A stretch of 64,000 nt of DNA. Origin: Candidatus Omnitrophota bacterium (GTDB lineage: Bacteria > Omnitrophota > Gorgyraeia > 2-01-FULL-45-10). The notes below the pieces were generated by a model that saw only the letters and a list, made by a program, of their open reading frames with translations, did no database searches and had not been told where the DNA came from. Every line of letters begins with the position of its first letter. The stretch's first letter is position 1. The DNA lies in NCBI GenBank assembly GCA_030695905.1, contig JAUYOL010000043.1, positions 194,561 to 258,560 on the forward strand, read 5' to 3'. Shown piece by piece: positions 6,000-49,102 of this stretch. The position numbers and the translations under genes were made by a program.

Positions 6000-6006
6000 A
6001 TCACAA

Positions 6007-21090: not shown

Positions 21091-24000
21091 TTATGCTGCA
21101 GTAAGTAGTTCGAGCAAGCGCTTATTTAGTTTAGGTATGTCGTTGACAGGCGCTGAAGCGGCTTTGGGCAGGTCAAAGATAAGTCTGCGGGCAAATTCTT
21201 TCGGATCATCCGATATTGCATCGGGCGGATTGTCAAATGGCTTGCCTGCCATGACGGAGTATATTCTCAAAAGTGCGGGCAGGCCGTTATCTGAATGCAA
21301 TGCTCTCAAAGCCGCCACAATGCCTTCCAATTGTATAAAGTCTTCTCCTTTAAATATAAGCATCTTTATATCTTTGTCTTCGGGAACCAATGCGAGATGT
21401 TCCTCGATAGAGAGGGCTATATCAACCATTGCGTTTGTATTTTCGGCGCGAATCTTTTTTATTGCTTCACTAATGGATGTTCCGCTCTCCAATATCCATA
21501 CTTTTTCAGACACATTCTTATTATCTCTAAAAGCCTTATTAACGCGCGTAATAAAACTGCCTTGCTGCTGCTCCAGCGGTATTACACCCTGTTCTATGAT
21601 GTGCCATAATACTTTATTTTCGGAAATAGCAGGCTGTATCTGCATGTTTATTTCATGCAAAATTGCCGCCCTAACCAACGCCCTGGAGATCTTTGCCTCA
21701 CGCTTTGCCAATTCGCAAGTAACAACATTTAATAATGTCCTCGTATAATCTACATCCTCGCCGATCATCATATCGGTAAACCTGTAATAATCAGGCTTAT
21801 TTTCAATCGGTTCAAGCACTCCAAGCGCAACGAGTCTTTTGGCTTCGGATTTATCGAGCGGGATGCCGCCATTTCTATTTAGCGCCGCTTTCATTAATTT
21901 GTCGTTATCTCTTATCGCTTTCATTACTTTTATCGACCAGCCTCTAACACGATTATAGACTTCACCCGATTCGCCTTCGCTCATTCTGCCCATGCTGACC
22001 AATAGTTTCAAAAGATATCTACCCTTGGCAGAACGCTGCAGTTTACGCCGAGCGCTGTCTAACAACTGCTGAATCCGCCTGCAGCTCACCTTGTATTTTC
22101 TACTCAATTCTTCTTGCGTGCTTGGCTCATTGCCAAAAAGTCCATAATACCCAATAGTCACTTCGCGCTGTCTATCAGTAAGGATTGACATCGCTGACTT
22201 TACAGCATCTCTCATTACAGATTCCTCTTCAGCAGCGGATGAAGGCTCTTCCGATGCCTCCACTTCCATTAAATTCATATCTTTTCTATTTAGGGGCATT
22301 TCTGTCACACGCCTATCACGGATTTCTGCCACATCAAGATAGTGGCCTAACGCGAGGCTGGAACTTCTTATTTCTTCTAAATCTGAGAATTTGTTGTTCA
22401 AAGTCCACACAAAACCCGGATAGCGTTTCTCTATATACTGCCTGAAGGTGAATATGCCGTCTTTTGTTAACAATTCCTTTTCTTCCATATATATTCCATA
22501 AAGATACTGCAACCTTTTTACTATACGCGCCTCGGTCCAGAATGGCTTGCCTCGACTATAATGAGTCGTATCCCAATTTTCTTCAGTGGCCTCCCCAGTA
22601 TCAACCGGAGCCTCCCCGTATCCAACATCAGCAACTCTTGTCAGCACCTCTTCCGCTTTGGCCCGCTCTATATCACTAAGATCGCTCCCATCCGGTTTCC
22701 CGGGCGTAAGACCACCTAAAAATTCATCAAGCTCATTGGGTCTATCTTGTAACAATTCGAATGCCGCAAACAGATCCAGCGCTTCCATTGCTTTTGATTT
22801 CGCTTCTTTGTATCTGCCATCATTGAATGCTCTAACCGCTTCACTTATCAAATCATTTACATATCCACCCGTCCATCCGTAAAGACTGTTCCTTTCTATG
22901 GGTCTTCCCACCAGCGAACCTTCGCCGCGAAGAGCAACTTCGCGTATTTCGGGAGAATCATCTTCTACCCCGAGTTCTCTCAATTTCTCACATATTAATC
23001 GCGGCGTTGCGTTTATATGATCTATATCCCAAAACCCCTTTCGTACGGTCGGGATCCAATGCTTTGCCGCTGAAATCACAACAGCTGGCACTCCTCGTAA
23101 CAGGGCCAAATGAAAAATAGCTGTATCAATAGTGACAACCCCTTCTGCCTGAGAAACAAAATCCAGCACTTTTCCCCTGTCCTTGAATTTTTTTACAATT
23201 AATTTCGGTGAGCCATGGATCCTACTTCTCACGGCATTTTCTATTTTTTGTGTTTCCCGCGCTTCATAAGAACTGGTACCGCTATTAAGCGCGACAACAA
23301 AACCTTTATCGATTAACTCCAGGATGGCCCCCACCCAGAGCTTCCTAAGCTGCCCGGATAGCTCTGCGTTAGTCCAGGAATGAGGATTAACAAAGATAAG
23401 GCCTTTCTGGTAATCTTGCCTGGGATAAACGATATTTACATCAGCTGAATTTAGACCAGCCAGGGATATATTATTTCTGGTAACCGAATAAATATCGCGC
23501 CTGTCCGGCTTATTAGATAACAATATCTGGCTAAATCCGAAAATAGACAATCGACTCACTGCTTTGAATTTTAAATTTTTCCCAAAATCAATAAAAACAT
23601 CGAATCTCTTATTTTTTAGAAACTGCTCTGATTCTTCATGAGATACATACCTGACCCTTGGGTCCATATTTTTAATTAATTCCGGCGCATAGGTAATAAC
23701 GGATATTTCTTCTACATCCGGCCAGGTATTTAGTATCGACGCTATGGTTAAAGGCAGCGAAACAATAGCCGAACCCCACGGTGAAAAATATTCATGCACT
23801 ATGGCAACGGATCTGACGCTTTTTATACCAGAAATAAGTTCTTTACATTGCGAGTAACTGTTAAACCCATCTAAATCTAAGGTTGTCGTCTTAACATTTT
23901 CATTGATAGTCTGTTCCTTTGGCGAATCCTTAACCGGCGGTGCGATACTCGGATTCGATTCGAGATGTCTGCGCGCGACATCCTGCACTTCCCCTGTCGT

Positions 24001-27000
24001 AGCATGGGCTTTTAATCTTGAAAGTTCTTCAGAAATTTCTGCTATTTGTGCACCATCCATATTATCAGCAGCATGATAATTATCGCCTTCTTGAACAATA
24101 AGACCGGCGCTGACAAGCTTACTTAAATCTTTTCGTGCCGTTGATACGGCGATTTGTCTCTTTCCGCCATTAGTTTCTATCATGACATCACCGCACAATC
24201 TATCGAACGGCACCCATCCTCTTTGGTAGTTATTTGTAAGCAGATCGAAGAACGTTGCGACATGTTCTGGAGCATGCGATGGCTTTACTGCTTCTTTAGC
24301 AGCCATCATTGCCCCCACAGCCTTCTTCAAGTTGATAAATTCACAACCCTTCGGCCCGACATGAATACTGAGTCCATATTTAAGCAAATCTTCTGCTCTT
24401 ATTATCCGCTTTTCAACAGGAATCCACTCTAAACCTTGTTCATCAAGTCTAAAACCTTCTTTTACATAATATGTGTTTCCCATATCAGCAGGTTCAACCT
24501 GTGAGTTAACTATCCTTTTCATATCAAATGTCGTCCACCCGTCCTCGAACGTAACATTAAGCGCGCCGATCACCATATCGTTGTCTCCGAAGCGCGCAAG
24601 TCCTATGGCATGCTCGGGCCTGTCTGTTTCAAGATAGTGATATGCTCCGTCGCTGAAGTTCGCATATAAAGCAGGGAGTGAGAATAGTTTTTTTCGGACA
24701 TCCCTTTTAGCAGGATCCGCATCCTCCATACGTGGGACGGGCGATGACTTCTCCTGAGCATTTCGATACTTGTGCTGGCTTCCATATATCTCTCCATTAA
24801 ATATTAAATTGAACCCAGGCATAAATGTATACATAAAATACAGCAGATTTCTATCCTGATAACTTAACATGGACCATGGGTCGCCGAAATCAAAGGCATC
24901 GTGTTCGGGCCCAAGATAGATAAAATTATCACGTATATCGGCAGGCATTGTCTCCGTGCTGCGCAAATACGAAATTAGTGCCTGGAGCCTGGAGGGGTCC
25001 AGTGGATCCATCAGGGCCTCTGTAGCATAATTCCTGCATTCCCATCCATAGAACGAAGCATCTCTTCCTTTTGCAACCGCCAGGAGATCTCTATATCTTT
25101 CAAATCCTTCAAACATAAAGAAAGCATAAGGATTTGTTTTACGGACTGCTTCAACAAATTGGGAAGAAAGATTATTGCTGACTTCTATATGCCAGTTATC
25201 TTTTATCCTGTCCGGGAACGTTGCAAGCGCGGTACCTACCCGCATTCCGTCCACACCTTTGCTAAGCCAAAACCTTCCTGTCTCTATCGCATCCCTGACA
25301 ACATCCGGATGCGAAAGATCCGGCTGGGCCAATGAACACCACCTACGGGGATAATCTGTTTTGAGGCTTACGAGGTCGGTCGCAGAAACTAAAAAAAGCG
25401 CTGACTCATCAGGGATGATTATGGCTGGGGCAACATAGCTCGCCCCCATCAGACCTTTTCGTATCTCATCGTCAGGCCGACGGTATGGTATTTCCCTGCC
25501 GTCCACATTTATCATTCCCTCGTGCTTCAATTCACGTGGGTCCATGTTTTTTAATTTGGCTGAAATCTTTTCACCTAATTCTATTTTTCGGCGAAGTTCA
25601 TTTGGCTGTATCGTTTGCCCGCGGAACAGCTTCGGATCCCTATCCAGCCCATAATTTCCATCACTGACATTGGTGTATAAATATCTTTCTGGATAGGACT
25701 TGCATAAAGGGCTGGACTTGGCGACATGCTGATTCGCTATCCAATCAACAATCACCATAAGCCCGACACTGTGCGCTTTTTTAATAAAATCTTCCAATTC
25801 TTTAAAAGAACCTGCCCGTTTATCTATATTTTTAGGATCGATAATTTCAAAAGGGCTGCCTGTATTTTCAATAAGCCCCAGCAGATACATGTATTTAACG
25901 CCAGAGTCCGCCAGGAATGATAATTCCTTGACTGCGGATTTCAAACCGGACATGCCTGTTGTTACATCATAATAGTCGCGAAGCACCATTTCATATATGG
26001 TCTTTGTATTTCTTTTCTTTCTTATTGCGGGCAGGTAGACGTCATGCGCATATCGCCTCTCCATCGCAACTGCGGTAACAAGCTCATTGGCCCTTAAATA
26101 TGAATTTCGCATCAGATGCTTCCACTTGCTTTTGCCCTCTTCATAAAAAAGCCTTGAAGATATCTCACACTTCGCAAATATATCCGCAGGGGCTTCGTGA
26201 TAAAATTTTTCGTTATCTGCCGCAAAACCGTCATCTGTTTCTTTTGTATAAGAACCAATAAAGAAACCGCTTCCCCCACCTGTCGTCTCATCGTAATCAA
26301 CTATCCATTCGACCGGGCCAGCGCCTTTAATGGCTATATTCACTCCGCCGTTTTCACCCGCACGTCCATCGGAAGTACCCGCAGCTTCTTCGAGAGGCCG
26401 GGGATTGGTTATACATAGATCGCAACCTATTGCCTGCATCTTAAGAAGCTTCGCGTCAGAGTTGGGCACATAGACAAATCTCCCATTGAATTCCGGTATA
26501 TCATTTGCCCAGTGCCGAAATTCCTGAACCCAGAATGGCATATATTCAGGACCGCCTACAACTAATTGCATGCCCAATCCATATACTTTTTTACGCCGGC
26601 CATTATCAAATATCTTGCTAAGATTGGATTCCACGATCCCTTTATTGTAGGATTGCGCTAAATCCGGTATGTCTCGGAACCACAGCGTTTTCAATTCGTC
26701 CATTGTGAAAGATTTATCTTTATCCGCGGTGAGAATATGGACCAAAAATCTTAGCATGGGATACTGACTTTTATAATCCACCAGTCTTCTCACTTCCCAC
26801 CCGGTAAGTTTATTTGGATCGAGCTTAACACCGGTCCTAATCTCGATCTCTGCAAAGGCTTCTTTTTTGCCATTTTCATGGATCTGCCACAGGTCTTCCT
26901 CACTGGGAACACCCTTCTTATCTTCAAATGCTTTCAGCTCGTCTGACTTCCATGTTTCGCCCGAACCATTCAGGACACCTACCACCGGCTTATCAAATTC

Positions 27001-28587
27001 GCTTCCGTACAGGTTCCTGAATAGCCTTTCGGTTGCTTTTGCATGCTCGTTGCTGACCGCATTTATAACATCGGCTAACTTCATCGCAGCATAACAGAAG
27101 TCAACAACGCCATTCGGCCTCAAAAATGCCGATCTTAGCTGAGCTGCTTTCTTTTTGGGCAGACCTATTACATACATCATCCGGTCCGCATTACTCTTGA
27201 CCGAAGCGGGCGAAAATGTCTCAAGGCCCGCCGGAACCAGCGTATGATTGGTATATACAATGGCGGTATTATTATATGATTCGTCTGCCCTCATCTGCGC
27301 CGCTGCTACAACTGTATGAGCTTCGTTAAGATGCAATATATCCGGTTTGATATGCATTTTTTTCATAAATGCATACACCGCCTTGCCGAATACTATCTCC
27401 TGGGTGAACCGGTGGGCCCTGTCATCTGGATACAATTCATCAAAAACCTTTGACATGAAAATGTAATCTGTTGCACCGCCCCTGCTTAACTTGTATACTT
27501 CTACCATAACTTTTGGATTATAGCGGTCCTCTTCGTCCTCTGTCCTGGCTTCAGGGTCTTCATCCCACGCACGGACCATGATTGCATCACCATTCACAGA
27601 AACCTTTTCCAGTATCCCTCTTTTTATCAGCTCCTCATAACTTACTTTTACCTTTTTACCATCCTTCCTTAGATGAGAGTAGCCTATCTGCGCGCCGAGA
27701 GCATTTATGCCTATTGCGGCCATGCCTTCGAGCTTGTCCCCGAAATATGCGCCAAGCCCGCCCTTAGTATTAGCATTCTGCGCTTCGTATCCTGCAAATT
27801 CCGGGATATTACCTTCCAGAGAAAGGGATAACACCGTCTTACCTTTTAACTCCGGAATATTTTGCGCTATCCAATTTTCTGTAAATTTACCTCCATTGCT
27901 CGCCGCAATATTAATATCATTATCATCTCTGTCTAATCCGTGTTCACTGTATAGTACATAGATATTGTCCAGATCTATAGAGCCTTTTACACTCTCGTAT
28001 ATCTTTTTGACTCGGGGGGTCGCTTCCCTGTCAACTTGGGCCGCAAACTTTCTCGCTTCGTCATGAGTGGCAGGATCTAAAATCCACCCCCTCATCTCGG
28101 CATATGTCTTCCCAAGCTCGAGGCGCTTGCTTTCCCATCTTGTTATTTTGTTCTTTTCATGGTTTCTTAGGGTGGCATTATTAAAATATCTTTTATCTAT
28201 ATAAATAATGGGCACGCCTGCCTGACGGCCCAATCCTATATGGGCGAGCTGGCCCGTATCTTTTGCCAAATTCTTAATAGCGACTAAAATGATTTTTTGA
28301 GTTTTATCAAGAACTCTTATGGTCTCGGCATCATCAACATCTTCCGGCTGGACCAATTTAAGCTGTGGGATTCCACCGGGCGGAAGCTTGGACTTGATAT
28401 TATTATTGAGGGCAGCATGGGATAGTTTTGTATATCCTGCTATATACTCGTCAGAGAATTGCTTCTGAGTTATTCGAAGCTGTGGGGCGAGTGCGAATGC
28501 TATATCATTACAAAAAAATAGACATACTATTGCCATTGTGATTACTCTTAGCAGCAATATATGCCTTACTTTGTATTGGATTAACAT
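21091..28587 (-). CDS. giant 2498-aa multidomain protein: N-terminal signal/anchor, GT35 alpha-glucan-phosphorylase-like, GH13 alpha-amylase-family-like, GT9 heptosyltransferase-like and sigma-70 region-4-like HTH modules
   Basis: One uninterrupted 7497-nt ORF. Ordered by-eye motif matches: KGGLGAYFGDKLEGMAAIG, HLNEAHT, YTNHTLVPAGLE and EEAAGTSDGRAGENGG (GT35); GVKYMYLLGL...AHSVGLMVIVDWIANQH, GVDGMRVGTA and GPEHD (GH13 regions I, II, IV); VVTIDTAIFHLALLRGVPAVVIS (GT9 C-terminal motif); LTDRQREVTIGYYGLFGNEPSTQEELSRKYKVSCRRIQQLLDSARRKLQ (sigma-70 region 4). Confidence 0.85.
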   Translation of the reverse strand: MLIQYKVRHILLLRVITMAIVCLFFCNDIAFALAPQLRITQKQFSDEYIAGYTKLSHAALNNNIKSKLPPGGIPQLKLVQPEDVDDAETIRVLDKTQKIILVAIKNLAKDTGQLAHIGLGRQAGVPIIYIDKRYFNNATLRNHEKNKITRWESKRLELGKTYAEMRGWILDPATHDEARKFAAQVDREATPRVKKIYESVKGSIDLDNIYVLYSEHGLDRDDNDINIAASNGGKFTENWIAQNIPELKGKTVLSLSLEGNIPEFAGYEAQNANTKGGLGAYFGDKLEGMAAIGINALGAQIGYSHLRKDGKKVKVSYEELIKRGILEKVSVNGDAIMVRAWDEDPEARTEDEEDRYNPKVMVEVYKLSRGGATDYIFMSKVFDELYPDDRAHRFTQEIVFGKAVYAFMKKMHIKPDILHLNEAHTVVAAAQMRADESYNNTAIVYTNHTLVPAGLETFSPASVKSNADRMMYVIGLPKKKAAQLRSAFLRPNGVVDFCYAAMKLADVINAVSNEHAKATERLFRNLYGSEFDKPVVGVLNGSGETWKSDELKAFEDKKGVPSEEDLWQIHENGKKEAFAEIEIRTGVKLDPNKLTGWEVRRLVDYKSQYPMLRFLVHILTADKDKSFTMDELKTLWFRDIPDLAQSYNKGIVESNLSKIFDNGRRKKVYGLGMQLVVGGPEYMPFWVQEFRHWANDIPEFNGRFVYVPNSDAKLLKMQAIGCDLCITNPRPLEEAAGTSDGRAGENGGVNIAIKGAGPVEWIVDYDETTGGGSGFFIGSYTKETDDGFAADNEKFYHEAPADIFAKCEISSRLFYEEGKSKWKHLMRNSYLRANELVTAVAMERRYAHDVYLPAIRKKRNTKTIYEMVLRDYYDVTTGMSGLKSAVKELSFLADSGVKYMYLLGLIENTGSPFEIIDPKNIDKRAGSFKELEDFIKKAHSVGLMVIVDWIANQHVAKSSPLCKSYPERYLYTNVSDGNYGLDRDPKLFRGQTIQPNELRRKIELGEKISAKLKNMDPRELKHEGMINVDGREIPYRRPDDEIRKGLMGASYVAPAIIIPDESALFLVSATDLVSLKTDYPRRWCSLAQPDLSHPDVVRDAIETGRFWLSKGVDGMRVGTALATFPDRIKDNWHIEVSNNLSSQFVEAVRKTNPYAFFMFEGFERYRDLLAVAKGRDASFYGWECRNYATEALMDPLDPSRLQALISYLRSTETMPADIRDNFIYLGPEHDAFDFGDPWSMLSYQDRNLLYFMYTFMPGFNLIFNGEIYGSQHKYRNAQEKSSPVPRMEDADPAKRDVRKKLFSLPALYANFSDGAYHYLETDRPEHAIGLARFGDNDMVIGALNVTFEDGWTTFDMKRIVNSQVEPADMGNTYYVKEGFRLDEQGLEWIPVEKRIIRAEDLLKYGLSIHVGPKGCEFINLKKAVGAMMAAKEAVKPSHAPEHVATFFDLLTNNYQRGWVPFDRLCGDVMIETNGGKRQIAVSTARKDLSKLVSAGLIVQEGDNYHAADNMDGAQIAEISEELSRLKAHATTGEVQDVARRHLESNPSIAPPVKDSPKEQTINENVKTTTLDLDGFNSYSQCKELISGIKSVRSVAIVHEYFSPWGSAIVSLPLTIASILNTWPDVEEISVITYAPELIKNMDPRVRYVSHEESEQFLKNKRFDVFIDFGKNLKFKAVSRLSIFGFSQILLSNKPDRRDIYSVTRNNISLAGLNSADVNIVYPRQDYQKGLIFVNPHSWTNAELSGQLRKLWVGAILELIDKGFVVALNSGTSSYEARETQKIENAVRSRIHGSPKLIVKKFKDRGKVLDFVSQAEGVVTIDTAIFHLALLRGVPAVVISAAKHWIPTVRKGFWDIDHINATPRLICEKLRELGVEDDSPEIREVALRGEGSLVGRPIERNSLYGWTGGYVNDLISEAVRAFNDGRYKEAKSKAMEALDLFAAFELLQDRPNELDEFLGGLTPGKPDGSDLSDIERAKAEEVLTRVADVGYGEAPVDTGEATEENWDTTHYSRGKPFWTEARIVKRLQYLYGIYMEEKELLTKDGIFTFRQYIEKRYPGFVWTLNNKFSDLEEIRSSSLALGHYLDVAEIRDRRVTEMPLNRKDMNLMEVEASEEPSSAAEEESVMRDAVKSAMSILTDRQREVTIGYYGLFGNEPSTQEELSRKYKVSCRRIQQLLDSARRKLQRSAKGRYLLKLLVSMGRMSEGESGEVYNRVRGWSIKVMKAIRDNDKLMKAALNRNGGIPLDKSEAKRLVALGVLEPIENKPDYYRFTDMMIGEDVDYTRTLLNVVTCELAKREAKISRALVRAAILHEINMQIQPAISENKVLWHIIEQGVIPLEQQQGSFITRVNKAFRDNKNVSEKVWILESGTSISEAIKKIRAENTNAMVDIALSIEEHLALVPEDKDIKMLIFKGEDFIQLEGIVAALRALHSDNGLPALLRIYSVMAGKPFDNPPDAISDDPKEFARRLIFDLPKAASAPVNDIPKLNKRLLELLTAA

Positions 28588-39909: not shown

Positions 39910-39939
39910 ATTATATAGCATATACCTAAAAATTGTCAA
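39910..39939 (-). promoter_or_regulatory. near-consensus sigma-70 promoter (TTGACA-18-TATAAT) about 75 nt upstream of polA
   Basis: The minus-strand sequence reads ttgacaatttttaggtatatgctatataat. The -35 element overlaps the stop codon of the upstream BNR gene. Confidence 0.4.
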
Positions 39940-41630
39940 GAAGATTTTTTGCTGGATTTGCTGGATTTTCTTATATGATCCGAAAGGTAGTTTCCTGTAA
40001 GATCGTCTATAGAATGGGTCAATTCCTGCAATCTCAGCTCCTTTTCAAACCTTATATTCATATCTTTATAGGGATTGGCCATCAGCTCAAGCTGAAGGCG
40101 TTTACGCTCATAATAAGCGCGCCTCAGGTCGTCCAATATATCGTTTCTCAGCTGCACCATAAGCCGCGAGCGCACATCTATATTGGTCTGGTCGTCACTC
40201 CAGATGAGGTCGCCGAGTTCCCACGATACCGAAACACTCCACCCGTCAGATGTATCATCGGGCCCTGACACGACATAGTCTTTCGTGGCGCTTGTATATA
40301 TATCGTACGTATCGGAACGGCTGTTGTCGGCCCCCAAAGAGACCTTTGGCAATAAGGCCCTTGCCTTTGCTTCAGACCGCCACTTCTTTATCTTTTCGGG
40401 ACTCACTTCGGCATACTTTATCGCTGCTTGCTGCAATTCCTTATATGTGGGCTCGCCGTCAAATATCACCTTAAGGGTATTTAAGCTCTTATCTATATCC
40501 GGATAATCATCCATAATGTAATCACCGCGCTGAATACTGTATAGGCCATTATCAGTGACCGCAAATATGGTATTTTCGTCGTCACTTCCGAATATCAGCC
40601 GGCTCACACTCGTGCTCTTCGCGATACCTTTGTATAATTCAAGCCAGCGTGACTTTTCCGCGTCAAATTCAAACACACCCTTATATGTAGCGCAATAGAT
40701 TCTTTTGTTTTTCGCCGAAATGAGTATATGGTTTATTCCCCCTACTAACCCTTCGCGCGAAAGATCCTTCCATGCCTTGCCCTGGTCATCACTATACTTT
40801 ATCTCTTTAGAATAGCCTATATATACCCTGCTTCCGTCGATAGCGATAGTTTTTATCGAAGCATCTGTCTCGTATTCATCTTCTGTTGTATCCTGCGGCT
40901 CATCCGTTTCGATTCTTTCAGAGGCGCTTCTTACAAAAATTCTCTCCCAGTTCCCGCCATCCGCTTTCCTTATATGCAGGCCCGATTCCGTCCCTGCATA
41001 CATATACTCTTTGTTCAAAGCCAGGCAGCTTACTGACATATTCTTAAGAGCGCCGCTTATATCCTGCCAGCGCATTCCAAGATCCTCGCTGGCAAATACG
41101 CCTTTTTCAGTGGCTATGATAATCCGGCTGCGATTATGCCTCGAAAGCTCGATGCAGGTTATATTATTCTTATCCGGCATAATTGTCCTAAAAATATTTA
41201 TCCATCGCTGGCCGTCATCATCGGATCTGAATAGCCCTCTTCTTGTACCTAAAAACATGGCCCTGCTTCTTCCCGCAACACAGGTAATCTGGTTATTTCC
41301 GCTTTGAGGCAGTGAAAAAACAGGCTCCCACTTCTGCTTCACATCTTTTGTCCTGTATAGCGCGCTCTTGGTCGCTATATATAGGGATTCCTTATTAAAA
41401 ACAGCGTCTTTTATTTCCGAATTTTTAACGGCTCCTTCCCTGGCCACCCAGGCATCCTGGGCGTTTATAGCGCCAAAATTCAGAAAAGAAATAGTAATAA
41501 CTACAACGGATAACATAATAATCTTCTTCACGATATCTTCCTCCTTGCCTGCCGGAAGGCAGGCCTTTCGTGGAGCTTCACAATACCATTTATTTGATGT
41601 TTTGTCAATATTTATTTTAATATTTATCAA
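39936..41630 (-). CDS. secreted BNR/Asp-box repeat (beta-propeller, sialidase/Ycf48-like) protein. The caller start at 41630 is a TTG. The likely real start is MLSVVVITISFLNFGAINA at about 41519
   Basis: Repeated SxDxGxxW Asp-box motifs (SDDDGQRW, SEDLGMRW, SDDQGKAW, TKDVKQKW, RKADGGNW). A signal peptide begins at residue 38 of the caller ORF. Confidence 0.6.
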   Translation of the reverse strand: MINIKINIDKTSNKWYCEAPRKACLPAGKEEDIVKKIIMLSVVVITISFLNFGAINAQDAWVAREGAVKNSEIKDAVFNKESLYIATKSALYRTKDVKQKWEPVFSLPQSGNNQITCVAGRSRAMFLGTRRGLFRSDDDGQRWINIFRTIMPDKNNITCIELSRHNRSRIIIATEKGVFASEDLGMRWQDISGALKNMSVSCLALNKEYMYAGTESGLHIRKADGGNWERIFVRSASERIETDEPQDTTEDEYETDASIKTIAIDGSRVYIGYSKEIKYSDDQGKAWKDLSREGLVGGINHILISAKNKRIYCATYKGVFEFDAEKSRWLELYKGIAKSTSVSRLIFGSDDENTIFAVTDNGLYSIQRGDYIMDDYPDIDKSLNTLKVIFDGEPTYKELQQAAIKYAEVSPEKIKKWRSEAKARALLPKVSLGADNSRSDTYDIYTSATKDYVVSGPDDTSDGWSVSVSWELGDLIWSDDQTNIDVRSRLMVQLRNDILDDLRRAYYERKRLQLELMANPYKDMNIRFEKELRLQELTHSIDDLTGNYLSDHIRKSSKSSKKSS

Positions 41631-41678: not shown

Positions 41679-43331
41679 ATGTTTAAGGACAAAAGAATAC
41701 AGGCACTGGCTATATCGCTTATCCTATGCATATCCTATTTCTTATGGATTGCGCCATTAAAACCTATCCGTATAGCCAATCTAAAGATCATAGACACATA
41801 CTTTGCGCTTAGCTCTAAAGTGACCTCTTCCCCAAAAGCCTTTGAAGATATAGTGCTCGTTACTATCGACGATGAATCGCTGCGGCGGATAAATATCCAG
41901 TGGCCGTGGCCCAGAAGCGTCATAGCGGGTATCATAAGCAAAATTTCACAGCAGGGCCCGCGGCTGATCTTGGCCGATCTTGTATTTGCCGGAAAGAGCG
42001 TTAACCCGGAAGAAGACCTGGCGCTTATAAACACGCTAAAAGATTCTAAGAACGTTATAGGCGCGGCATACTTCGGTAATGACGGCAGATACGTTATCCC
42101 CGATGAGCCGATAGCTCTTAGTCTGGCGGATTTTGGGTTTGTGAATAAACCAAGAGACGCGGACAATTCTGTCAGAAGGACAAGGCCTTACTTCCTGTCG
42201 CCTTCAGGAGAAGTCATAGATTATTCCCTTTCTCTAAAGGCGGCCGGGCGTATCCTAAATATGCCGACAGCCGGCCTTGCGGCTACACTGCCCTTATCAA
42301 AAGACGGTACCGCATATATTAAATTTTTCGGCAGGACGGAAAAATTTAATATTGTCCCCGTATGGAAAATTATGGATAGCAGTATTAACACCATTCCCTT
42401 AAAAAACAAGACAGTACTATTGGGCGTAACCAGCGAATCTTTCCATGATGCATACAGTACACCACTGGGAATAATGCCCGGGCTGACCATAGACCTAAAT
42501 GAAATGCTTACATACACGAATAAAAAATTCTTTCGTTACGCGGCTGGCAATATGAACTCAGTCATCATATTCCTCTTTCTCCTGATGGCCGTGATGGGGG
42601 CATTAAGGCTTCATGTCATCACAGGCACCGTCTTTGGCATAGCGTTAATTGCGGCATCTTTCTTCCTGGGGTTATTTTTATTCACAAAATATATAATAAC
42701 AGATACTTTCGGCGCGATATTTCTTATAGCCGCATCCACCATATTATTGCACGGAGCCAGGTCCGTACTTTTGGCACTGGAAAATATAGTACTAAAGAAA
42801 GAGGCTATTACAGACGGTCTTACAGGCTTATTTTTATACAGATACTTTGAGCTACAGCTTAAGAGGGAATTAAAAAACGCGTCTTCAGGCAGTAAAAATC
42901 TTGCGCTGGTACTATATGATATCGACCACTTTAAGAAGATAAATGACACATTTGGTCATGAATTCGGCAACACTGTACTAAGGGCGATAGCAAGGAGCCT
43001 TAAGAACCACACCAGGAAAAATAACGTAATAGCCCGCTATGGCGGAGAAGAGTTCTGTATTATAGTTACAGGAATGGGCCGTGACCACGCTATAAAATAT
43101 GCTGATAGGCTGCGGAATCTGGTTGGCAGCCTGGAATTTAAAACCGATAAGGGCGAAATAATCAGGGTCGCCATGAGCGCCGGCATAGCAATGATAGGAG
43201 ATGTCCCTTCGGATAATCCCAGCGAATTTGTAAAAGCGGCTGACTGCGCGCTCTATAGGTCTAAAAACAGCGGACGCAACAGAATTAGTGTTTTTGATAA
43301 GAATTTGGATGATATAAATAGATGCGGATAA
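41679..43331 (+). CDS. CHASE2 sensor domain-containing diguanylate cyclase (GGEEF)
   Basis: 550 aa. N-terminal TM, a roughly 270-aa extracytoplasmic domain, three TMs, then a GGDEF domain with ARYGGEEFCIIV. The I-site is degenerate (RKNN). Confidence 0.8.
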   Translation: MFKDKRIQALAISLILCISYFLWIAPLKPIRIANLKIIDTYFALSSKVTSSPKAFEDIVLVTIDDESLRRINIQWPWPRSVIAGIISKISQQGPRLILADLVFAGKSVNPEEDLALINTLKDSKNVIGAAYFGNDGRYVIPDEPIALSLADFGFVNKPRDADNSVRRTRPYFLSPSGEVIDYSLSLKAAGRILNMPTAGLAATLPLSKDGTAYIKFFGRTEKFNIVPVWKIMDSSINTIPLKNKTVLLGVTSESFHDAYSTPLGIMPGLTIDLNEMLTYTNKKFFRYAAGNMNSVIIFLFLLMAVMGALRLHVITGTVFGIALIAASFFLGLFLFTKYIITDTFGAIFLIAASTILLHGARSVLLALENIVLKKEAITDGLTGLFLYRYFELQLKRELKNASSGSKNLALVLYDIDHFKKINDTFGHEFGNTVLRAIARSLKNHTRKNNVIARYGGEEFCIIVTGMGRDHAIKYADRLRNLVGSLEFKTDKGEIIRVAMSAGIAMIGDVPSDNPSEFVKAADCALYRSKNSGRNRISVFDKNLDDINRCG

Positions 43332-45497
43332 TTATTTCTGTGATGATTTTACGGTTTCCAACACCTTCGACAATCTCTTCGTAAATGAGCCCATCATAGC
43401 CTTCATCTTCTCTTCAAGTAGTTTCTTATTCGGATCTATGTATTGTTTGCGGTACTTGGCTTCCTGCTGAAGTATATACTCTTCCTCGAAGCCCTTCTTC
43501 TCCATCCTTCTTATCTTATCGAGTATCTTATCCACTTCATTGGGTTCGAGCTTAGACAACTCCTGTTCCATCATATTCTTGGAGAGAATGTTGTTGAGCT
43601 GAAGCAAAGCAATATTCTTTGAGATTATCTTCTTCATATCATCATAATACGGCTTTACCGACTCCTGATACTCGAGAATTATCTTGCCCTTCGATGTATT
43701 GAGTTCGGAGAATATGTTCTTCACATTGGATACATCGCCATCCTTCAATAGATCGGGAATGGCTTGTGCTATTAATATGGCTGCCACAGCTTGAAGCAGA
43801 TCGTCTGATGCTTTCTTTAGTTCGGGTGAGCCGGATTCCTGCTCCTGTCTTTTTACTTCATTCAGCAATGCCGTCATCACATCGAGCATAAGCCTCTGGT
43901 CCTGGGTAGGATTTTTGAGTATATTGGCAAGTTTTGCGGCGATATCCATCTCCTGAGCGCTTACCCCGGCCTGAGGGACAGCTAAAGCTGATCTACCCAG
44001 CGCATCATCCACTATTCCCGCAAGTAACTTAGGGTCAACTGCACCCTGAGACCCTCTTTGTAATGCTCCCTTATTAGCCAAAAGACCCTTAAATATTGAG
44101 GCGAGACCGTTAGCTCCTAATGCTTTCCCTGAGTCGATACTTCCAGGATATAAAACCGACTCCAAAAACAACTTGTTGTCATCGAGCCTATCATTATTGA
44201 GAAATAACGTATTGGAAGTAGATACTGATGAAGTATTGGCTAATAAGCTGCTGGAGCCGGTCTCAAGGTTCGGCGCCGTCTTGGTACTTGCCATGGATAT
44301 GGCGGGGGTATAGCTGCCGTAAGAATAAGACAAAAGCCTGCTGTCTGCTTCGCTGGCGAAATAATCTCCGCTGGATGACAAAGACAGCCCGCCATTCAGG
44401 GAAATGCCATAAACGCTATTATAATTATTATCCGTAGAAATTACGGTTGACATCGCTCCGGACGTATTCACCGTCATAGATGATCCGGGAATAGACAGGA
44501 ACATGTATTGCTGATATATGCCGGTTACACTCACCCCTATCCCCGTATTAAAATCATTATCCTCAAGCGTGATAGATGAACCATTGACACGTATTCCCGA
44601 ATCAGCGGAAAGGCCATAATATCCCGTAAAGTCTCCAGCATTGAATGTATTATTGCTTATAACCAGATCTGAGGATCTGTCAATGTGTATTCCTGCATAA
44701 CCATCTTCCCCATACACTGAAGTACTGGAAACATTGAATGTGAATCCGTCAATCTCTGTGAGGTTATCGATATTCTCCGCATACATGAAACCGTTTATAA
44801 TAGTCGGGGTATTTTCAAGATCTCTTTCTCCGCTTTCGCTATATCCGCCGTAAAGACTCACGCCGTTTTTAATAACCAGCGGATCAGCGACATTGCCCCA
44901 TTCATACATGTAATATGCTGGATCGTATATGCCTCCTTTTACGATTACTCTGTCTCCCTCACCGGCTATATCTATAGCCTCTTGTATCGCGCCTTTGCCT
45001 ACATCATCAAATCCCGCGTATACATACTTTTGCCCATCAATGACTTCGGATATTAACCGGCCATCCTCATATACCTGGTCTGTGCCCGAGCCTATATCCA
45101 CATCATAGCTTACCGCCGCTTCGGCAACCTCGGTTGAAGTTGATGCTGTTTCCGCATCTCCGTCACTATCCCCCCTGGCACCGGTCTTCTTCTTTAGCTC
45201 GAGCGTAGGCTTATCCATAGCGTCTTCTTTGACCTTGTCAGATAGGTTGGTATCCATATATTCGGCTGAAGTATTGGGCAAATTCTTCTTACTGCTTATC
45301 TGGCTGATTATAGCGTCTGTCTTCTGTTTGGAGGCATTAATATATCCCGGAGAGAATACACTAGACTGGCCATTGGACAGACGATCGCTGTTGTCGTCCG
45401 CGGCGGAATACGAGCCCTGGACAAAAATTATAGATATGGCTAAAATAATAGATATTATTAACATTTTTTTCATGACTACGCCCCTTAAGTTGTACAT
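43332..45497 (-). CDS. secreted parallel beta-helix (PbH1) repeat protein, paralog 1
   Basis: 721 aa. Signal peptide; central repeats with ISNNTF/LEDNDF-type PbH1 motifs; conserved helical C-terminal domain shared with the neighbouring gene. Confidence 0.6.
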   Translation of the reverse strand: MYNLRGVVMKKMLIISIILAISIIFVQGSYSAADDNSDRLSNGQSSVFSPGYINASKQKTDAIISQISSKKNLPNTSAEYMDTNLSDKVKEDAMDKPTLELKKKTGARGDSDGDAETASTSTEVAEAAVSYDVDIGSGTDQVYEDGRLISEVIDGQKYVYAGFDDVGKGAIQEAIDIAGEGDRVIVKGGIYDPAYYMYEWGNVADPLVIKNGVSLYGGYSESGERDLENTPTIINGFMYAENIDNLTEIDGFTFNVSSTSVYGEDGYAGIHIDRSSDLVISNNTFNAGDFTGYYGLSADSGIRVNGSSITLEDNDFNTGIGVSVTGIYQQYMFLSIPGSSMTVNTSGAMSTVISTDNNYNSVYGISLNGGLSLSSSGDYFASEADSRLLSYSYGSYTPAISMASTKTAPNLETGSSSLLANTSSVSTSNTLFLNNDRLDDNKLFLESVLYPGSIDSGKALGANGLASIFKGLLANKGALQRGSQGAVDPKLLAGIVDDALGRSALAVPQAGVSAQEMDIAAKLANILKNPTQDQRLMLDVMTALLNEVKRQEQESGSPELKKASDDLLQAVAAILIAQAIPDLLKDGDVSNVKNIFSELNTSKGKIILEYQESVKPYYDDMKKIISKNIALLQLNNILSKNMMEQELSKLEPNEVDKILDKIRRMEKKGFEEEYILQQEAKYRKQYIDPNKKLLEEKMKAMMGSFTKRLSKVLETVKSSQK
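43340..43850. repeat. about 500-bp direct repeat, near-identical to 45512..46010 (the 3' coding ends of the two beta-helix paralogs)
   Basis: Direct comparison of the two DNA stretches shows only scattered mismatches over about 490 bp. Identity drops abruptly further into the genes. Confidence 0.8.
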
Positions 45498-47557
45498 TAC
45501 TTTTTAGCCGTATTTACAGCCTCCAATACCTTCGACAATCTCTTCGTAAATGAGCCCATCATAGCCTTCATCTTCTCTTTAAGCAGTTTCTTGTTCGGAT
45601 CTATATATTGTTTGCGGTACTTGGCTTCCTGCTGAAGTATATACTCTTCCTCGAAGCCCTTCTTCTCCATCTTTCTTATCTTATCGAGTATCTTATCCAC
45701 TTCATTGGGTTCGAGCTTAGACAACTCCTGTTCCATCATATTCTTGGAGAGAATGTTGTTGAGCTGAAGCAAAGCAATATTCTTTGATAGCAATTTCTTT
45801 GTCTCGTCATAATATGGCTTTACCGACTCCTGATACTCGAGAATTATCTTGCCCTTCGATGTATTGAGTTCGGAGAATATGTTCTTCACATTGGACACAT
45901 CGCCCTCCTTCAATAGATCGGGAATGGCTTGTGCTATTAATATGGCTGCCACAGCTTGAAGCAGATCGTCTGATGCTTTCTTTAGTTCGGGTGAGCCGGA
46001 TTGACCTTCTATATTATTGACCATATTCAACAGGCTCTCCACAACACTAAGAACCTCTTTCTGATCCTGGGTTGGATTTTTGAGTATATTAGCCAATGCA
46101 AGAGCTAATTCCATTTGAGGACCGTTTATTCCAGTCATAGGAATCGATAATGCCGATCTTTCTAACGAATCACCCACCAGCTTTATCAGAAGCGCTGGAT
46201 CTACTTGCCCTGTCGCGCTAACCATCAAAGCGTCTTTGCTTCCAAGCAAGCTTTTAAATATAGAAGAAATAGCTCCGGCATCCGAAGGACTTAGGGTCTT
46301 AACCGCCAATAGTGAGCTTTGGTAAATATCGCTATTATCGCGCTTATTATAAGAAAGATCGTTGGTGGTATAATTAGACAGTCCAGCGTTAATAGACTGT
46401 GCGGTATCCACTTGCACAGTCGGACGCAACGACGAACCTACTATTGATACATCAGCAGTATAAGCCGATCCCGGACGGTCAATAAACTGACCTCCGCTGA
46501 AATAGTCATTGACAGATTTAATTATTGAGTGGCCGCCTGAGGATATTCCAATGGAGCCATTGAAATCGTTATTTTTTGTCTGAATATAAGAAGAAGATCC
46601 GGAATATTGAAGAATAGGCGATGGGGCATTTTTACCGTATACGTATATGGCTGTTTCCACATTAAAAATATTATTCCGAATATCCAGGAAGGCGGAATTT
46701 GCCACTATCCCGAGACTCCTACTATCGCTACTGACAAAAATATTGTTGCTGATAGTAAGATTTTGTGAGTACGATGCCGATACCCCAGAGCCGGATTTAG
46801 CGATATCCAGCGTAAACCCGTCGATCTCTGTAGGTTTAGTTATAAACGAGGCGGTCAAGTAACCATTAATAAGGGTGGTAGTATTATTTACAACATCCCT
46901 ACTGCCAGCTTCATTATATCCACCGTAGAGGCTGATACCATTTCGTACTTGTAATAAGGACACTATTCTGCCATCCGGCCTTTCCAAGCTAAGGCTATAC
47001 GTCCCTGCCTTTACCAATATATTGTCTCCTGCAGTTGCGGACCTCACAGCATCGATTATGCTGCTCTTCCCGATATTGTCGAAGCCAACGTACATAAATC
47101 TTTGACCGTCTATTACCTCAGATATCATGCGGCCGCTACTGTCATACGTTTTATTTGTCCCGCTGCCTATACCTATATTATTGTACTTCGATGAATCACG
47201 CATATCGGTCTTGGCAGCTGCCGTTAAATCTTTAGCCTCTCCACTTGCGGCCACGGCTTGGCTCGTCTTCTTCTTTAGTTCGAGTGTAGGCTTATTCATA
47301 GCATCTTCCTTGACCTTATCGGATAGGTTAGTATCCATATATTCGGCCGAAGTATTGGACAGGTTGTTTTTCTTGCCATTTATCTGATTTATAATAGCAT
47401 CTGTCTTCTGCTTAGTTGCGTTGATATACCCGGGAGAGAATATGCCGGTCTGCTCATTGGACAAAAGATCACTCTTGTCGTCCATAGCGGAATATGAGCC
47501 CTGGGCGAACACCGCTGATATTGCCAGAATAGTGAAAACTACCGCTAATCTTTTCAT
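45497..47557 (-). CDS. secreted parallel beta-helix (PbH1) repeat protein, paralog 2
   Basis: 686 aa. N-terminal 100 aa and C-terminal 165 aa are nearly identical to paralog 1; the middle is divergent with IRNNIF/TKNNDF repeats. Its stop overlaps the paralog 1 start. Confidence 0.6.
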   Translation of the reverse strand: MKRLAVVFTILAISAVFAQGSYSAMDDKSDLLSNEQTGIFSPGYINATKQKTDAIINQINGKKNNLSNTSAEYMDTNLSDKVKEDAMNKPTLELKKKTSQAVAASGEAKDLTAAAKTDMRDSSKYNNIGIGSGTNKTYDSSGRMISEVIDGQRFMYVGFDNIGKSSIIDAVRSATAGDNILVKAGTYSLSLERPDGRIVSLLQVRNGISLYGGYNEAGSRDVVNNTTTLINGYLTASFITKPTEIDGFTLDIAKSGSGVSASYSQNLTISNNIFVSSDSRSLGIVANSAFLDIRNNIFNVETAIYVYGKNAPSPILQYSGSSSYIQTKNNDFNGSIGISSGGHSIIKSVNDYFSGGQFIDRPGSAYTADVSIVGSSLRPTVQVDTAQSINAGLSNYTTNDLSYNKRDNSDIYQSSLLAVKTLSPSDAGAISSIFKSLLGSKDALMVSATGQVDPALLIKLVGDSLERSALSIPMTGINGPQMELALALANILKNPTQDQKEVLSVVESLLNMVNNIEGQSGSPELKKASDDLLQAVAAILIAQAIPDLLKEGDVSNVKNIFSELNTSKGKIILEYQESVKPYYDETKKLLSKNIALLQLNNILSKNMMEQELSKLEPNEVDKILDKIRKMEKKGFEEEYILQQEAKYRKQYIDPNKKLLKEKMKAMMGSFTKRLSKVLEAVNTAKK

Positions 47558-47607
47558 GGCTATGCCTCTTTCGTAAAAAACTTTTAAAAAGATTTGTATA
47601 AAAACCC

Positions 47608-47636
47608 ATAAAAAAACACACTCGCCGTGTGTTTTA
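47608..47636 (-). terminator. rho-independent terminator downstream of the HAMP-GGDEF gene
   Basis: The plus strand reads aaaaaacacac-tcgcc-gtgtgtttt, a perfect 8-bp stem with a 5-nt loop flanked by A and T tracts (so bidirectional in form). It lies about 100 nt after the stop at 47738. Confidence 0.55.
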
Positions 47637-47737
47637 TCGGCTGTTTATACATCTAACTTTCTCTTCCCTTCACTATATAATATACCATATATATACAGCC
47701 AATACAATGGAGCAAAATATAACTTTTTTCTATTTAA

Positions 47738-49102
47738 CTAAACCGTCCTCCTATCAAGTATGAAGTTACTTTTCTTTACCTGTTTGGCCTTCACTTTTAT
47801 GCTAACGGCTATATTTGTCAATTCTCCATAACTCGATATCGGCCTTACCTGATTAGTGACACCTGCCATGGATATACTCATTATAGGAAATTTGACAATC
47901 TCTCCCTTCCTGTCCTTCTCCATAATAAAACCCGTCTTTAGGTCTTCTTCTGAATAAAAGGTTCTCACCTTAGAGTCAAATTCGGATATTATTTCCCCAG
48001 TTACTAAATCGACTTTATCCGGCGTTGTTATAATAAAAAAGTCATCGCCACCCTCATGGCCCAGAAAGTCTCCCGTGTTCCCTTTAGATCTTATTGCGCC
48101 TTCCAATACTTTGCTCGTAAATTTAATTACCTCGTCGCCCTTCGCTATACCGTATCTGTCATTGTATGCTTTAAAATTATCCAGATCCACATGTACCGCC
48201 ACAAACTTACTTCCCCTGGCTATCCTGCTTTCCACCTCATCCCGTATAACATTGTTCCCGGGCAATTTTGTAAGCGGATTGGCGTTTTCAGCCTTCTCCT
48301 TCATTTTCTTTAAGGCAATCGTCATCTCGTTGAATGTTTCTCCAAGTTCCTGTATTTCATCATTTGTGTTAATAGAGACCTTCATATCCAGATTGCCGCT
48401 GGCTATTTCCTTGGTCGCGCTATTAAGAACCTCTATGGGCCATACCACCGTTTTCAATAGAATAAACCCGAGCACCAAATTGCCCAGTATAACGGCTATT
48501 GAAGTAAGGACTATGGGCACCATCGTATCCACAATTGCCTGGCTTATATTCCCTATGGAAAAAGATAGTTTTGCTATATATTTTTTTACCGCTCCTGTGG
48601 CAAGGGGTATATAAATATCTATTATCTTGGTGTTCTCATTAATTGACGAATAGAACCAGGATTCCTGCCCGGTTGCGCGGGAAAGATTGCTGTATGTCTC
48701 TATATCCTGCGCGGCCTCGCCAAACTCTCTCACTATAGGATCGTTTGTAGTTACTACTTTTCCGTCCATGGATAGAACCGATATCTTTTCCACTACACCT
48801 TCACTGGAAAAAGAATCTATGGCTGCGCCGAATATGCCGGACAATTCATCTTCGCCCTGCATATCCTTGGCGAGCATCTCCAAAGTGGTCTTGACTATTA
48901 TTGTGCTAAGACGGGCGCGGTATTTATTGTAAGCGTTGAGCCTCTCGAGATGATTATTAAGCTGTATTGAAGTGAAGGTAAAAATAAAAAGAAGCGACAA
49001 GGCGCTTATGACAATACCGACTCTTACATGTAGCTTAAATTTGGGCATGGATTTTACTTTATATCCTTTAGTTCCAGCTGTATCGACTGCACCCCCTGCC
49101 AA
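47738..49102 (-). CDS. membrane sensor with HAMP domain and a GGDEF-family domain carrying a GGDDF motif
   Basis: 454 aa. N-terminal TM, a periplasmic region, a second TM, HAMP (GNLDMKVSINTNDEIQELGETFNEM), then a GGDEF fold (LDNFKAYNDRYG...GHEGGDDFFII). No RxxD I-site. Confidence 0.8.
   Translation of the reverse strand: MAGGAVDTAGTKGYKVKSMPKFKLHVRVGIVISALSLLFIFTFTSIQLNNHLERLNAYNKYRARLSTIIVKTTLEMLAKDMQGEDELSGIFGAAIDSFSSEGVVEKISVLSMDGKVVTTNDPIVREFGEAAQDIETYSNLSRATGQESWFYSSINENTKIIDIYIPLATGAVKKYIAKLSFSIGNISQAIVDTMVPIVLTSIAVILGNLVLGFILLKTVVWPIEVLNSATKEIASGNLDMKVSINTNDEIQELGETFNEMTIALKKMKEKAENANPLTKLPGNNVIRDEVESRIARGSKFVAVHVDLDNFKAYNDRYGIAKGDEVIKFTSKVLEGAIRSKGNTGDFLGHEGGDDFFIITTPDKVDLVTGEIISEFDSKVRTFYSEEDLKTGFIMEKDRKGEIVKFPIMSISMAGVTNQVRPISSYGELTNIAVSIKVKAKQVKKSNFILDRRTV

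Follow-up and report, generated by a model that had tools for sequence, protein, structure and literature searches.

A HAMP-GGDDF sensor gene and a riboswitch-linked beta-helix gene array in Omnitrophota, with the aptamer missing from the genome analyzed

The DNA analyzed here is a stretch of 64,000 nucleotides (hereafter called the window) from a Candidatus Omnitrophota bacterium (assembly GCA_030695905.1, contig JAUYOL010000043.1, positions 194,561 to 258,560 of the forward strand). It contains a group of four genes, in which two genes for secreted beta-helix proteins, named ParA and ParB, lie between two genes for membrane sensors of the GGDEF type. One of the sensors, encoded on the plus strand (41679..43331), consists of a CHASE2 domain, three transmembrane segments and a domain of the diguanylate cyclase type with a GGEEF motif. 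The other, encoded on the minus strand (47738..49048), is a protein of 436 amino acids with a sensor region between two transmembrane segments, a HAMP domain and a GGDEF-family domain whose motif reads GGDDF; it is predicted to be a signal-regulated dinucleotide cyclase. An earlier sequence-only reading of this DNA had described the same set of genes, and all of them were found at or near the positions it gave. Comparison with related loci suggests that what is conserved as a functional unit is not the pair of cyclases but the HAMP-GGDDF gene with the secreted beta-helix array downstream of it.

The CHASE2 gene converges with the ParA gene and abuts it. It is the only credible plus-strand gene in the window, as had been noticed before: all other plus-strand open reading frames (ORFs) of at least 150 amino acids sit within longer minus-strand ORFs, and strong Pfam matches were obtained for those of the minus-strand ORFs that were scanned. 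The Pfam search of the encoded protein detected CHASE2 (1.9e-43) and GGDEF (7.3e-42, 143 bits, model positions 1-161 of 161). The GGDEF domain was aligned end to end with those of PleD and DgcR. The GGEEF motif is located at 43041..43055, the metal residues are present, and the segment SKNSGRNR holds the equivalents of K442 and R446. The sequence-only reading had described this active site as canonical, which is true of the GGEEF motif but not of the site as a whole. The position of PleD D344, a Watson-Crick contact of the guanine, is occupied by Asn431 of the segment GHEFGN (42969..42971), and RKNN (43014..43025) stands where RxxD is expected. Both features are invariant in four orthologs.

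ParA (43332..45473, minus strand, 713 amino acids with the NCBI start) and ParB (45497..47557, minus strand, 686 amino acids) share one architecture, which consists of a signal peptide and a variable beta-helix flanked by two conserved parts, an N-terminal FSPGYINA module and a helical domain at the C-terminus. Both proteins start with a signal-like helix. ParA was modelled as a 721-amino-acid ORF from the ATG at 45497, so that 8 must be subtracted to obtain the 713-amino-acid numbering. In the model, the signal-like helix is followed by a disordered linker, then by a beta-rich domain predicted with confidence (residues ~130-405 of the 721) and finally by a helical domain of ~290 residues (~435-720); the beta-rich domain is modelled as a right-handed parallel beta-helix of the pectin-lyase fold. 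Neither ParA nor ParB gave any Pfam or NCBIfam match. The 33 homologs found all come from Omnitrophota or metagenomes, and a few of them match Beta_helix, NosD or DUF1565 weakly. In relatives, the family is present in 1-4 copies with lengths of 596-1171 amino acids. ParA and ParB are 54% identical, with ~95% identity over the last ~170 residues, ~75% over the first ~110 and ~30% in the middle, a pattern suggesting that gene conversion acts on the ends while the middle diversifies. The motif FSPGYINA.KQKT, which directly follows the signal peptide (F48-N54 in ParA; approximate positions ~45362..45346 in ParA and ~47416..47400 in ParB, minus strand), is invariant in all 33 family members and may be a sorting or anchoring signal. 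The family resembles enzymes and adhesins of the pectin-lyase fold (RbmB, pectate and alginate lyases, phage capsule depolymerases, PfbA) at 10-16% identity. Unlike these proteins, it adds the N-terminal FSPGYINA module and the ~290-amino-acid C-terminal helical module, which have no match in Pfam or NCBIfam. ParA and ParB may function as carbohydrate-binding or carbohydrate-cleaving surface proteins.

In the case of the HAMP-GGDDF protein, more than 100 orthologs (63-86% identity) were found in Omnitrophota, nearly all of them 435-438 amino acids long. The ORF in the window reaches a TTG at 49102, and the true start was placed at 49048 because more than 100 orthologs have a length of 436 amino acids and begin at the residue that corresponds to Met19 of the window's ORF. 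Hydrophobic segments are present at residues ~4-31 and ~168-209. Pfam detected HAMP (2.1e-10) and GGDEF (2.4e-13, 50.6 bits against a cutoff of 23.8), the latter over model positions 5-90 of 161 only, and TIGR00254 was matched with 48.6 bits against a cutoff of 37.4. When aligned to solved cyclases, the active-site hairpin GHEGGDDF (48038..48061, minus strand, with GGDDF at 48038..48052) corresponds to RYGGDEF of the structures 4urs and 8c05. The segment DLDNFKAYND...AKGDEV (48128..48187, minus strand) supplies the first metal Asp and the guanine-contacting Asn and Asp, so that the equivalents of PleD D327, N335 and D344 are all present. The corresponding D306, N314 and D323, as well as GGDDF, are invariant across orthologs, and GHEGGDDF as a whole was unchanged in 15 and in 31 orthologs compared. 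The Glu at the fourth position of the motif, the proposed general base, is absent, and the Asp in its place keeps a carboxylate there. The position of the RxxD inhibitory site (I-site) is occupied by NTGD (48068..48079, minus strand), which contains no Arg and thus forms no canonical I-site. The sequence-only reading had reported a GGDDF motif and no RxxD in this protein. Both statements were upheld by the alignment of its domain to solved cyclases: the Asp at the fourth position is real, no intact Glu was found there in the HAMP protein, and the I-site is missing.

The AlphaFold model of the HAMP-GGDDF catalytic domain (pLDDT 93.7) predicts a complete palm-type GGDEF fold with the order beta-alpha-alpha-beta-beta-alpha-beta-alpha-beta. 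A fold search with this domain returned 158 PDB matches at E<=1e-3, with 176-192 alignment columns for the 187 query residues. The top 50 matches were all GGDEF-domain proteins, mostly diguanylate cyclases (SiaD, WspR, DosC, DgcB, PleD, Geobacter Hypr 6d9m), with TM-scores of ~0.65-0.70. Kinship with the 'GGDD' palm domains of Cas10 and mCpol was also considered. It was rejected, as only GGDEF cyclases stood at the top of the search and no Cas10-type palm domain was present among the 50 PDB matches listed. The equivalents of K442 and R446 in this domain were judged from the model topology alone; profile alignment of the C-terminal half to structures failed. In comparison with PleD, WspR and DgcR (PF00990), the Omnitrophota protein shares the predicted fold, the substrate and metal residues DxD..FK..ND..GD and the GG[DE] hairpin. 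It differs from them in the Asp at the fourth position in place of Glu, the missing RxxD I-site, GH for R-Y/F before GG, LPGN for L(P)NRR and the lack of the phosphate-binding Arg of helix 4, and the identity is only 17-24%.

The 187-residue GGDDF domain was searched against 1.84 billion cluster representatives. The search gave 20,976 matches, including 740 clusters at E<=1e-30, and the best 150 representatives cover the whole domain with 35-61% identity. Among these 150, the motif reads GGDDF in 143 and GGDDY in 3 and is preceded by GH[I/E/V]; the specificity position reads 'GD' in 126, a Hypr-type Ser in 6 and Asn in 6. The RxxD site is the one on which known degenerate GGDEF receptors rely. 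RxxD was found at the I-site position in only 2 of 149 subfamily representatives and was absent from the other 147. As in working cyclases, REC, HAMP, EAL-CBS, HD-GYP and kinase modules occur as fusion partners of the domain, and most members are REC- or HAMP-driven outputs with no other catalytic domain. Judged from these sequences, GGDDF is not a sign of decay; a large subfamily of GGDEF domains carries it as an invariant signature, GH[IEV]GGDDF without RxxD.

Loci from relatives were gathered by a genome scan, exact-protein look-ups and a DNA-pattern scan of metagenomes, and the proteins of the window were mapped onto them; unrelated HAMP proteins (loci L027-L078) were left out. Twenty distinct loci, the window included, had a HAMP-GGDDF ortholog (at least 64% identity) and enough downstream sequence to be counted. 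In 17 of them, namely the window, L002, L003, L004, L005, L006, L007, L010, L011, L013, L019, L081, L084, L086, L091, L092 and L108, the HAMP-GGDDF gene is directly followed on the same strand by 1-4 genes of the ParA/ParB family (below, the paralogs). Conservation of the neighbourhood, whose absence would have spoken against the sequence-only reading, is thus confirmed. The genes upstream differ between the loci: RecJ-CDF-SecDF in some, PHO4-PhoU-Ysc84 in L081, tRNA genes in L011 and L019, and others elsewhere. The pairing of the HAMP-GGDDF gene with the paralogs thus survives rearrangement. Next to more distant HAMP-GGDDF paralogs (L014-L025, 40-57% identity), neither ParA/ParB-family genes nor riboswitches were found. 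In L085 (85% identity), a gene for an rve-family transposase (5771..6772) directly follows the HAMP-GGDDF gene, in the place of the paralogs. A 120-amino-acid PilZ-domain gene, of a family of cyclic di-GMP (c-di-GMP) receptors, lies at 15761..16123 of L081, a few genes past an array of four paralogs.

The CHASE2 gene behaved differently from the HAMP-GGDDF gene. Its convergence with the last paralog is limited to the window, L005, L079/L080, L082 and L108, and it was not found after the paralog arrays of L081, L011, L013 and L019. Where the contigs continue past it (L079/L080, L082, L108), the next gene is the BNR-like gene, as in the window, and PolA and GlgA follow in L079/L080 and L082, where the sequence reaches that far. 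Because the CHASE2 gene is present only where this downstream block is also kept, its position looks like inherited synteny and not like a designed bracket. The sequence-only reading had proposed that a CHASE2 cyclase and a HAMP sensor bracket the beta-helix genes. Such an arrangement does exist in the window, but it is not a general design, since the CHASE2 gene is limited to one synteny block.

In relatives, an obvious GEMM-I (c-di-GMP-I riboswitch) sequence lies in the intergenic region that separates the first paralog from the HAMP-GGDDF gene. The Rfam model RF01051 detected nine aptamers above its gathering score (42-74 bits), always just upstream of a paralog gene: in L013 (71.6 bits), L005 (63.4), L002 (61.7), L010 (42.1), L082 (74.1), L081 (61.7), L001 (61.7) and L084 (67.6 and 74.3 for the first and second). 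In the majority of the 17 loci with paralogs after the HAMP-GGDDF gene, an aptamer of this type stands before a paralog gene, which is an independent line of evidence for control by c-di-GMP. Each of the two paralog genes of L084 is preceded by its own aptamer, and aptamers also precede internal paralog copies in L081, L082 and L084. The bases that presumably correspond to G20 and C92 of Vc2, located by alignment to the Vc2 sequence, are kept in the aptamers. Under the A20/G20 selectivity rule of GEMM-I aptamers (PMC6456294), this points to c-di-GMP rather than cyclic GMP-AMP (cGAMP) as the ligand. A Hypr cyclase working with a cGAMP (GEMM-Ib) riboswitch was considered as well. It was rejected because position 20 of the aptamers is still G and the specificity position of the enzyme is still Asp.

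After each aptamer there is a terminator of the form CCTATTnnCC...GGnnAATAGG with a U-run. In the first aptamer helix, the 5' strand (ACCATCTG) is complementary to a segment (CAGATGGT) that lies just 5' of the 3' strand of the terminator and overlaps it, and in L013 both complementary sides change together (CCATT with AATGG). Minimum free energy folds gave either the aptamer with the terminator or the long-range alternative. With matches to the full model, an intrinsic terminator downstream and secreted or surface proteins as targets, these leaders resemble known GEMM-I riboswitches such as Vc2 and Cd1. They are unlike them in that many relatives carry insertions of 50-110 nucleotides after the first hairpin and before the GCAAAGC junction, and that the window has no riboswitch. 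Both halves of the aptamer are kept but split by such structured insertions in L003, L004, L011, L091 and L108, and these aptamers fall below the gathering score because of the insertion. It sits exactly between GGGTC and GCAAAGC (L003 ~11423-11591, L004 ~1627-1799, L011 ~11392-11543, and likewise L091 and L108) and folds as one or two hairpins, in which the loci differ by compensatory changes such as CCCCGACTTCG..CTTCGTCGGG versus CCCCTACTTCG..CTTCGTAGGG. The insertion-bearing aptamers may represent a structural variant of GEMM-I that has not yet been described. Insertions of this kind were also seen in the unrelated contexts L087, L098 and L106.

The window's own leader of the paralog operon (47558..47737, minus strand, 180 nucleotides) contains no c-di-GMP aptamer. 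Alignment with the leaders of relatives revealed the conserved 19-nucleotide box GTTAAATAGAAAAAAGTTA (47720..47738) and the promoter-like element TTGTAT..TGGTATATT (47679..47707), both on the minus strand. The leader is conserved up to GCCGATAAA, after which the aptamer is missing. A hairpin ACACAC-GGCGA-GTGTG followed by U7 was found at 47610..47634 (minus strand; -15.3 kcal/mol, z = -3.8). Searches with RF01051 gave no match at the gathering score in the whole 64 kb, at E<=5 in 12 kb or at E<=10 in 221 nucleotides. Weak Rfam matches in the window (SpF03, Phe leader, microRNAs) were rejected as chance matches to the terminator hairpin. The aptamer is also absent from L086 (84% identity), whereas L084 (86%) has two; this suggests that the loss was recent and has occurred repeatedly. 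The sequence-only reading had suggested local c-di-GMP control of the beta-helix genes. It is supported for the lineage by the RF01051 matches in relatives' leaders and by the HAMP-GGDDF gene, which stays adjacent, but not for the window: the RNA-level c-di-GMP link is gone in this genome. The box, with the consensus GTTAA(A/C)TAnAAAAAG(T/C)(T/C)AG, shares nucleotides with the stop codon of the gene before it and is followed by promoter-like TTGTAT-N-TGGTATAnT. Box and promoter-like element were also located at ~6395-6460 of L084 and ~9735-9800 of L081, and the box stands before every paralog gene, internal copies included. It may be a regulator binding site.

The account that we consider somewhat probable as a whole is that the HAMP-GGDDF protein is an active c-di-GMP cyclase belonging, in this lineage, with a riboswitch-controlled beta-helix array, that the aptamer was deleted here, and that the CHASE2 protein is independent. 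The HAMP-GGDDF protein would be a membrane cyclase switched by an extracytoplasmic signal through a WalK-like sensor loop and HAMP, and it would make c-di-GMP free of product inhibition. Every beta-helix gene, or pair of such genes, would in this lineage have its own promoter and be read through the c-di-GMP-I riboswitch and the intrinsic terminator. Bound ligand would probably favour termination (an OFF switch), and the messenger level would set the amount of the presumed carbohydrate-binding or carbohydrate-cleaving surface proteins. In this genome, deletion of the aptamer would have left the promoter, the early leader and the hairpin with U7, so that ParB and ParA may have escaped direct RNA-level control by c-di-GMP and be constitutively attenuated or regulated otherwise. 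CHASE2-GGEEF would be a second, independent input of the c-di-GMP type, placed by inherited synteny.

For the activity of the enzyme, the closest published case is GSU1937, a transmembrane HAMP protein of Geobacter sulfurreducens with a GGDDF cyclase domain of the Hypr type. As a fusion, its GGDDF domain made cGAMP and c-di-GMP in vivo, while the GADDF mutant was inactive, and its authors called it the first active GGDDF enzyme (PMC8835794). It resembles the Omnitrophota protein in the membrane HAMP architecture, GGDDF for GGDEF, no EAL or HD-GYP partner and a dinucleotide pathway read by a riboswitch. The two differ at the specificity position, where GSU1937 has Ser and makes cGAMP, whereas the Omnitrophota protein has Asp, which predicts the use of GTP only; in GacA, an Asp at this position (S348D) gives a pure, GTP-selective diguanylate cyclase (PMC6456294). 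From the conserved residues, the model and this analogy, we predict that the HAMP-GGDDF protein of the window is probably an active, GTP-specific cyclase without product inhibition. The sequence-only reading took it for a possibly weak or inactive cyclase or a c-di-GMP receptor. Both ideas are unlikely: GGDDF is a conserved subfamily signature with the metal and guanine contacts kept, the RxxD site used by degenerate receptor domains is absent, and one published GGDDF enzyme is active (PMC8835794). An active cyclase is thus more likely than a receptor.

Several points weigh against the proposed account. The orthologous loci L009, L012 and L085 have no paralogs after the HAMP-GGDDF gene. The aptamer also stands before paralogs with no HAMP-GGDDF gene upstream, in L111 (between the BNR-like gene and PolA) and in L089, so that the RNA belongs to the paralog genes; the riboswitch tracks the paralogs, not the cyclase, and does not identify the cyclase that supplies its ligand. 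The OFF direction is one we infer only from folding and complementarity. Asp-type ('GD') GGDDF enzymes have, to our knowledge, never been characterised biochemically. The subfamily lacks counterparts of PleD R366, in whose place it has His, and of R446, and sequence profiles can be aligned to the domain over its N-terminal two thirds only. As for GSU1937, it was active in just one of four artificial fusions (PMC8835794), and it would belong to this subfamily by analogy with HAMP-GGDDF representatives that read 'GS' (e.g., P0280). A further point is the P. aeruginosa GGDDF-EAL protein PA3258, which shows no cyclase phenotype (cited in PMC8835794). A rival reading, which we consider improbable, is a catalytically dead domain that serves in nucleotide binding or protein interaction. 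Such a domain would agree with the loss of the fourth-position Glu, the proposed general base (PMC6456294, PMC8835794), with the Pfam match to the first half of the domain only, and with PA3258. Against it stand the strict conservation, in 740+ clusters, of the residues that contact metal and base, the near-complete absence of RxxD, the REC- or HAMP-driven architecture of most members, whose GGDDF domain is the only catalytic domain, and the activity of GSU1937. A still less probable alternative, to which we give very little credence, is that the domain makes something other than c-di-GMP (cGAMP, a linear intermediate of the pppGpG type or another dinucleotide) and that the riboswitch is served by, for example, CHASE2-GGEEF. 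The altered motif and phosphate contacts, the cGAMP made by GSU1937 and the few representatives with Ser or Asn at the specificity position would allow for this. The window protein and 126 of the 150 relatives keep, however, the specificity Asp that drives GTP selectivity in GacA S348D, and the adjacent aptamers are of the G20 (c-di-GMP) type.

The most serious competitor, although we regard it as rather unlikely, is that the genes are neighbours by descent only. The sensors would then be uncoupled from ParA and ParB in this genome, the cyclases would feed a global pool and the paralogs would be expressed independently. The leader of the window, which has no aptamer, is what would be expected, and so are the CHASE2 gene kept only together with the BNR-PolA-GlgA block and the riboswitch-paralog units of L111 and L089 with no adjacent cyclase; moreover, all the loci come from one Omnitrophota clade. 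This explanation is opposed by the order of HAMP-GGDDF gene and paralogs, which survives in at least 4 upstream and several downstream contexts, and by the ancestral leader, which clearly sensed c-di-GMP.

All components described here are of a known kind: a GGDEF sensor cyclase, a CHASE2 cyclase, a GEMM-I riboswitch on secreted proteins and proteins of the pectin-lyase fold. Less ordinary are the Asp-type GGDDF subfamily, which is large, strongly conserved and essentially uncharacterised, the combination of a cyclase, a riboswitch and a diversifying beta-helix array as a stable unit in an uncultured phylum, and the unusual structured insertions of the aptamers. If the proposed account is true, it would give genomic support, from an uncultured phylum, for Asp-type GGDDF domains as working c-di-GMP synthases; the subfamily comprises hundreds of clusters at 50% identity and has one published activity test. 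It would also describe a compact unit of sensor, riboswitch and secreted enzyme in Omnitrophota, which could be rebuilt in a model host. It would further illustrate how neighbourhood-based annotation may go wrong in an individual genome, here one from which the linking RNA of relatives has been deleted. A bolder and more doubtful extension is that GH[IEV]GGDDF marks a distinct, ancient and hardly studied cyclase class found across phyla, with product inhibition absent and the phosphate site re-wired, and that in one Omnitrophota clade its HAMP-gated member is hard-wired to riboswitch-gated, tailspike-like surface enzymes in 1-4 copies, which diversify rapidly in the middle and keep their ends. 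In that case, the beta-helix enzymes could serve attachment to host or prey polysaccharides or their digestion, and the repeated loss of the aptamer (in the window, L086 and L019) would mark lineages in which the programme is locked on or off. A literature search on Omnitrophota and c-di-GMP found nothing relevant.

The genes around the four-gene group form a minus-strand housekeeping run, with SecDF, a CDF transporter and RecJ upstream and PolA, GlgA, CoaE, Rho and RF1 downstream. The gene at 39936..41630 (minus strand, probable start at Met38) codes for a weakly BNR/Sortilin-like secreted protein and belongs to the synteny block of the CHASE2 gene; as already described, it adjoins that gene in L079, L082 and L108 too. 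The sequence-only reading had placed a BNR/Asp-box beta-propeller protein at this flank. The gene was confirmed, and the BNR label is backed by matches below threshold only: Sortilin-Vps10 (32.2 bits against a cutoff of 33) and PSII_BNR (18.7 against 27) in Pfam, and F510_1955 (78.8 against 175) in NCBIfam. Farther away, the minus-strand ORF at 21091..28587 encodes 2498 amino acids, parts of which match the profiles of starch synthase (Glyco_transf_5), alpha-amylase and sigma-70 region 4. Its product is an unusual giant multidomain protein.

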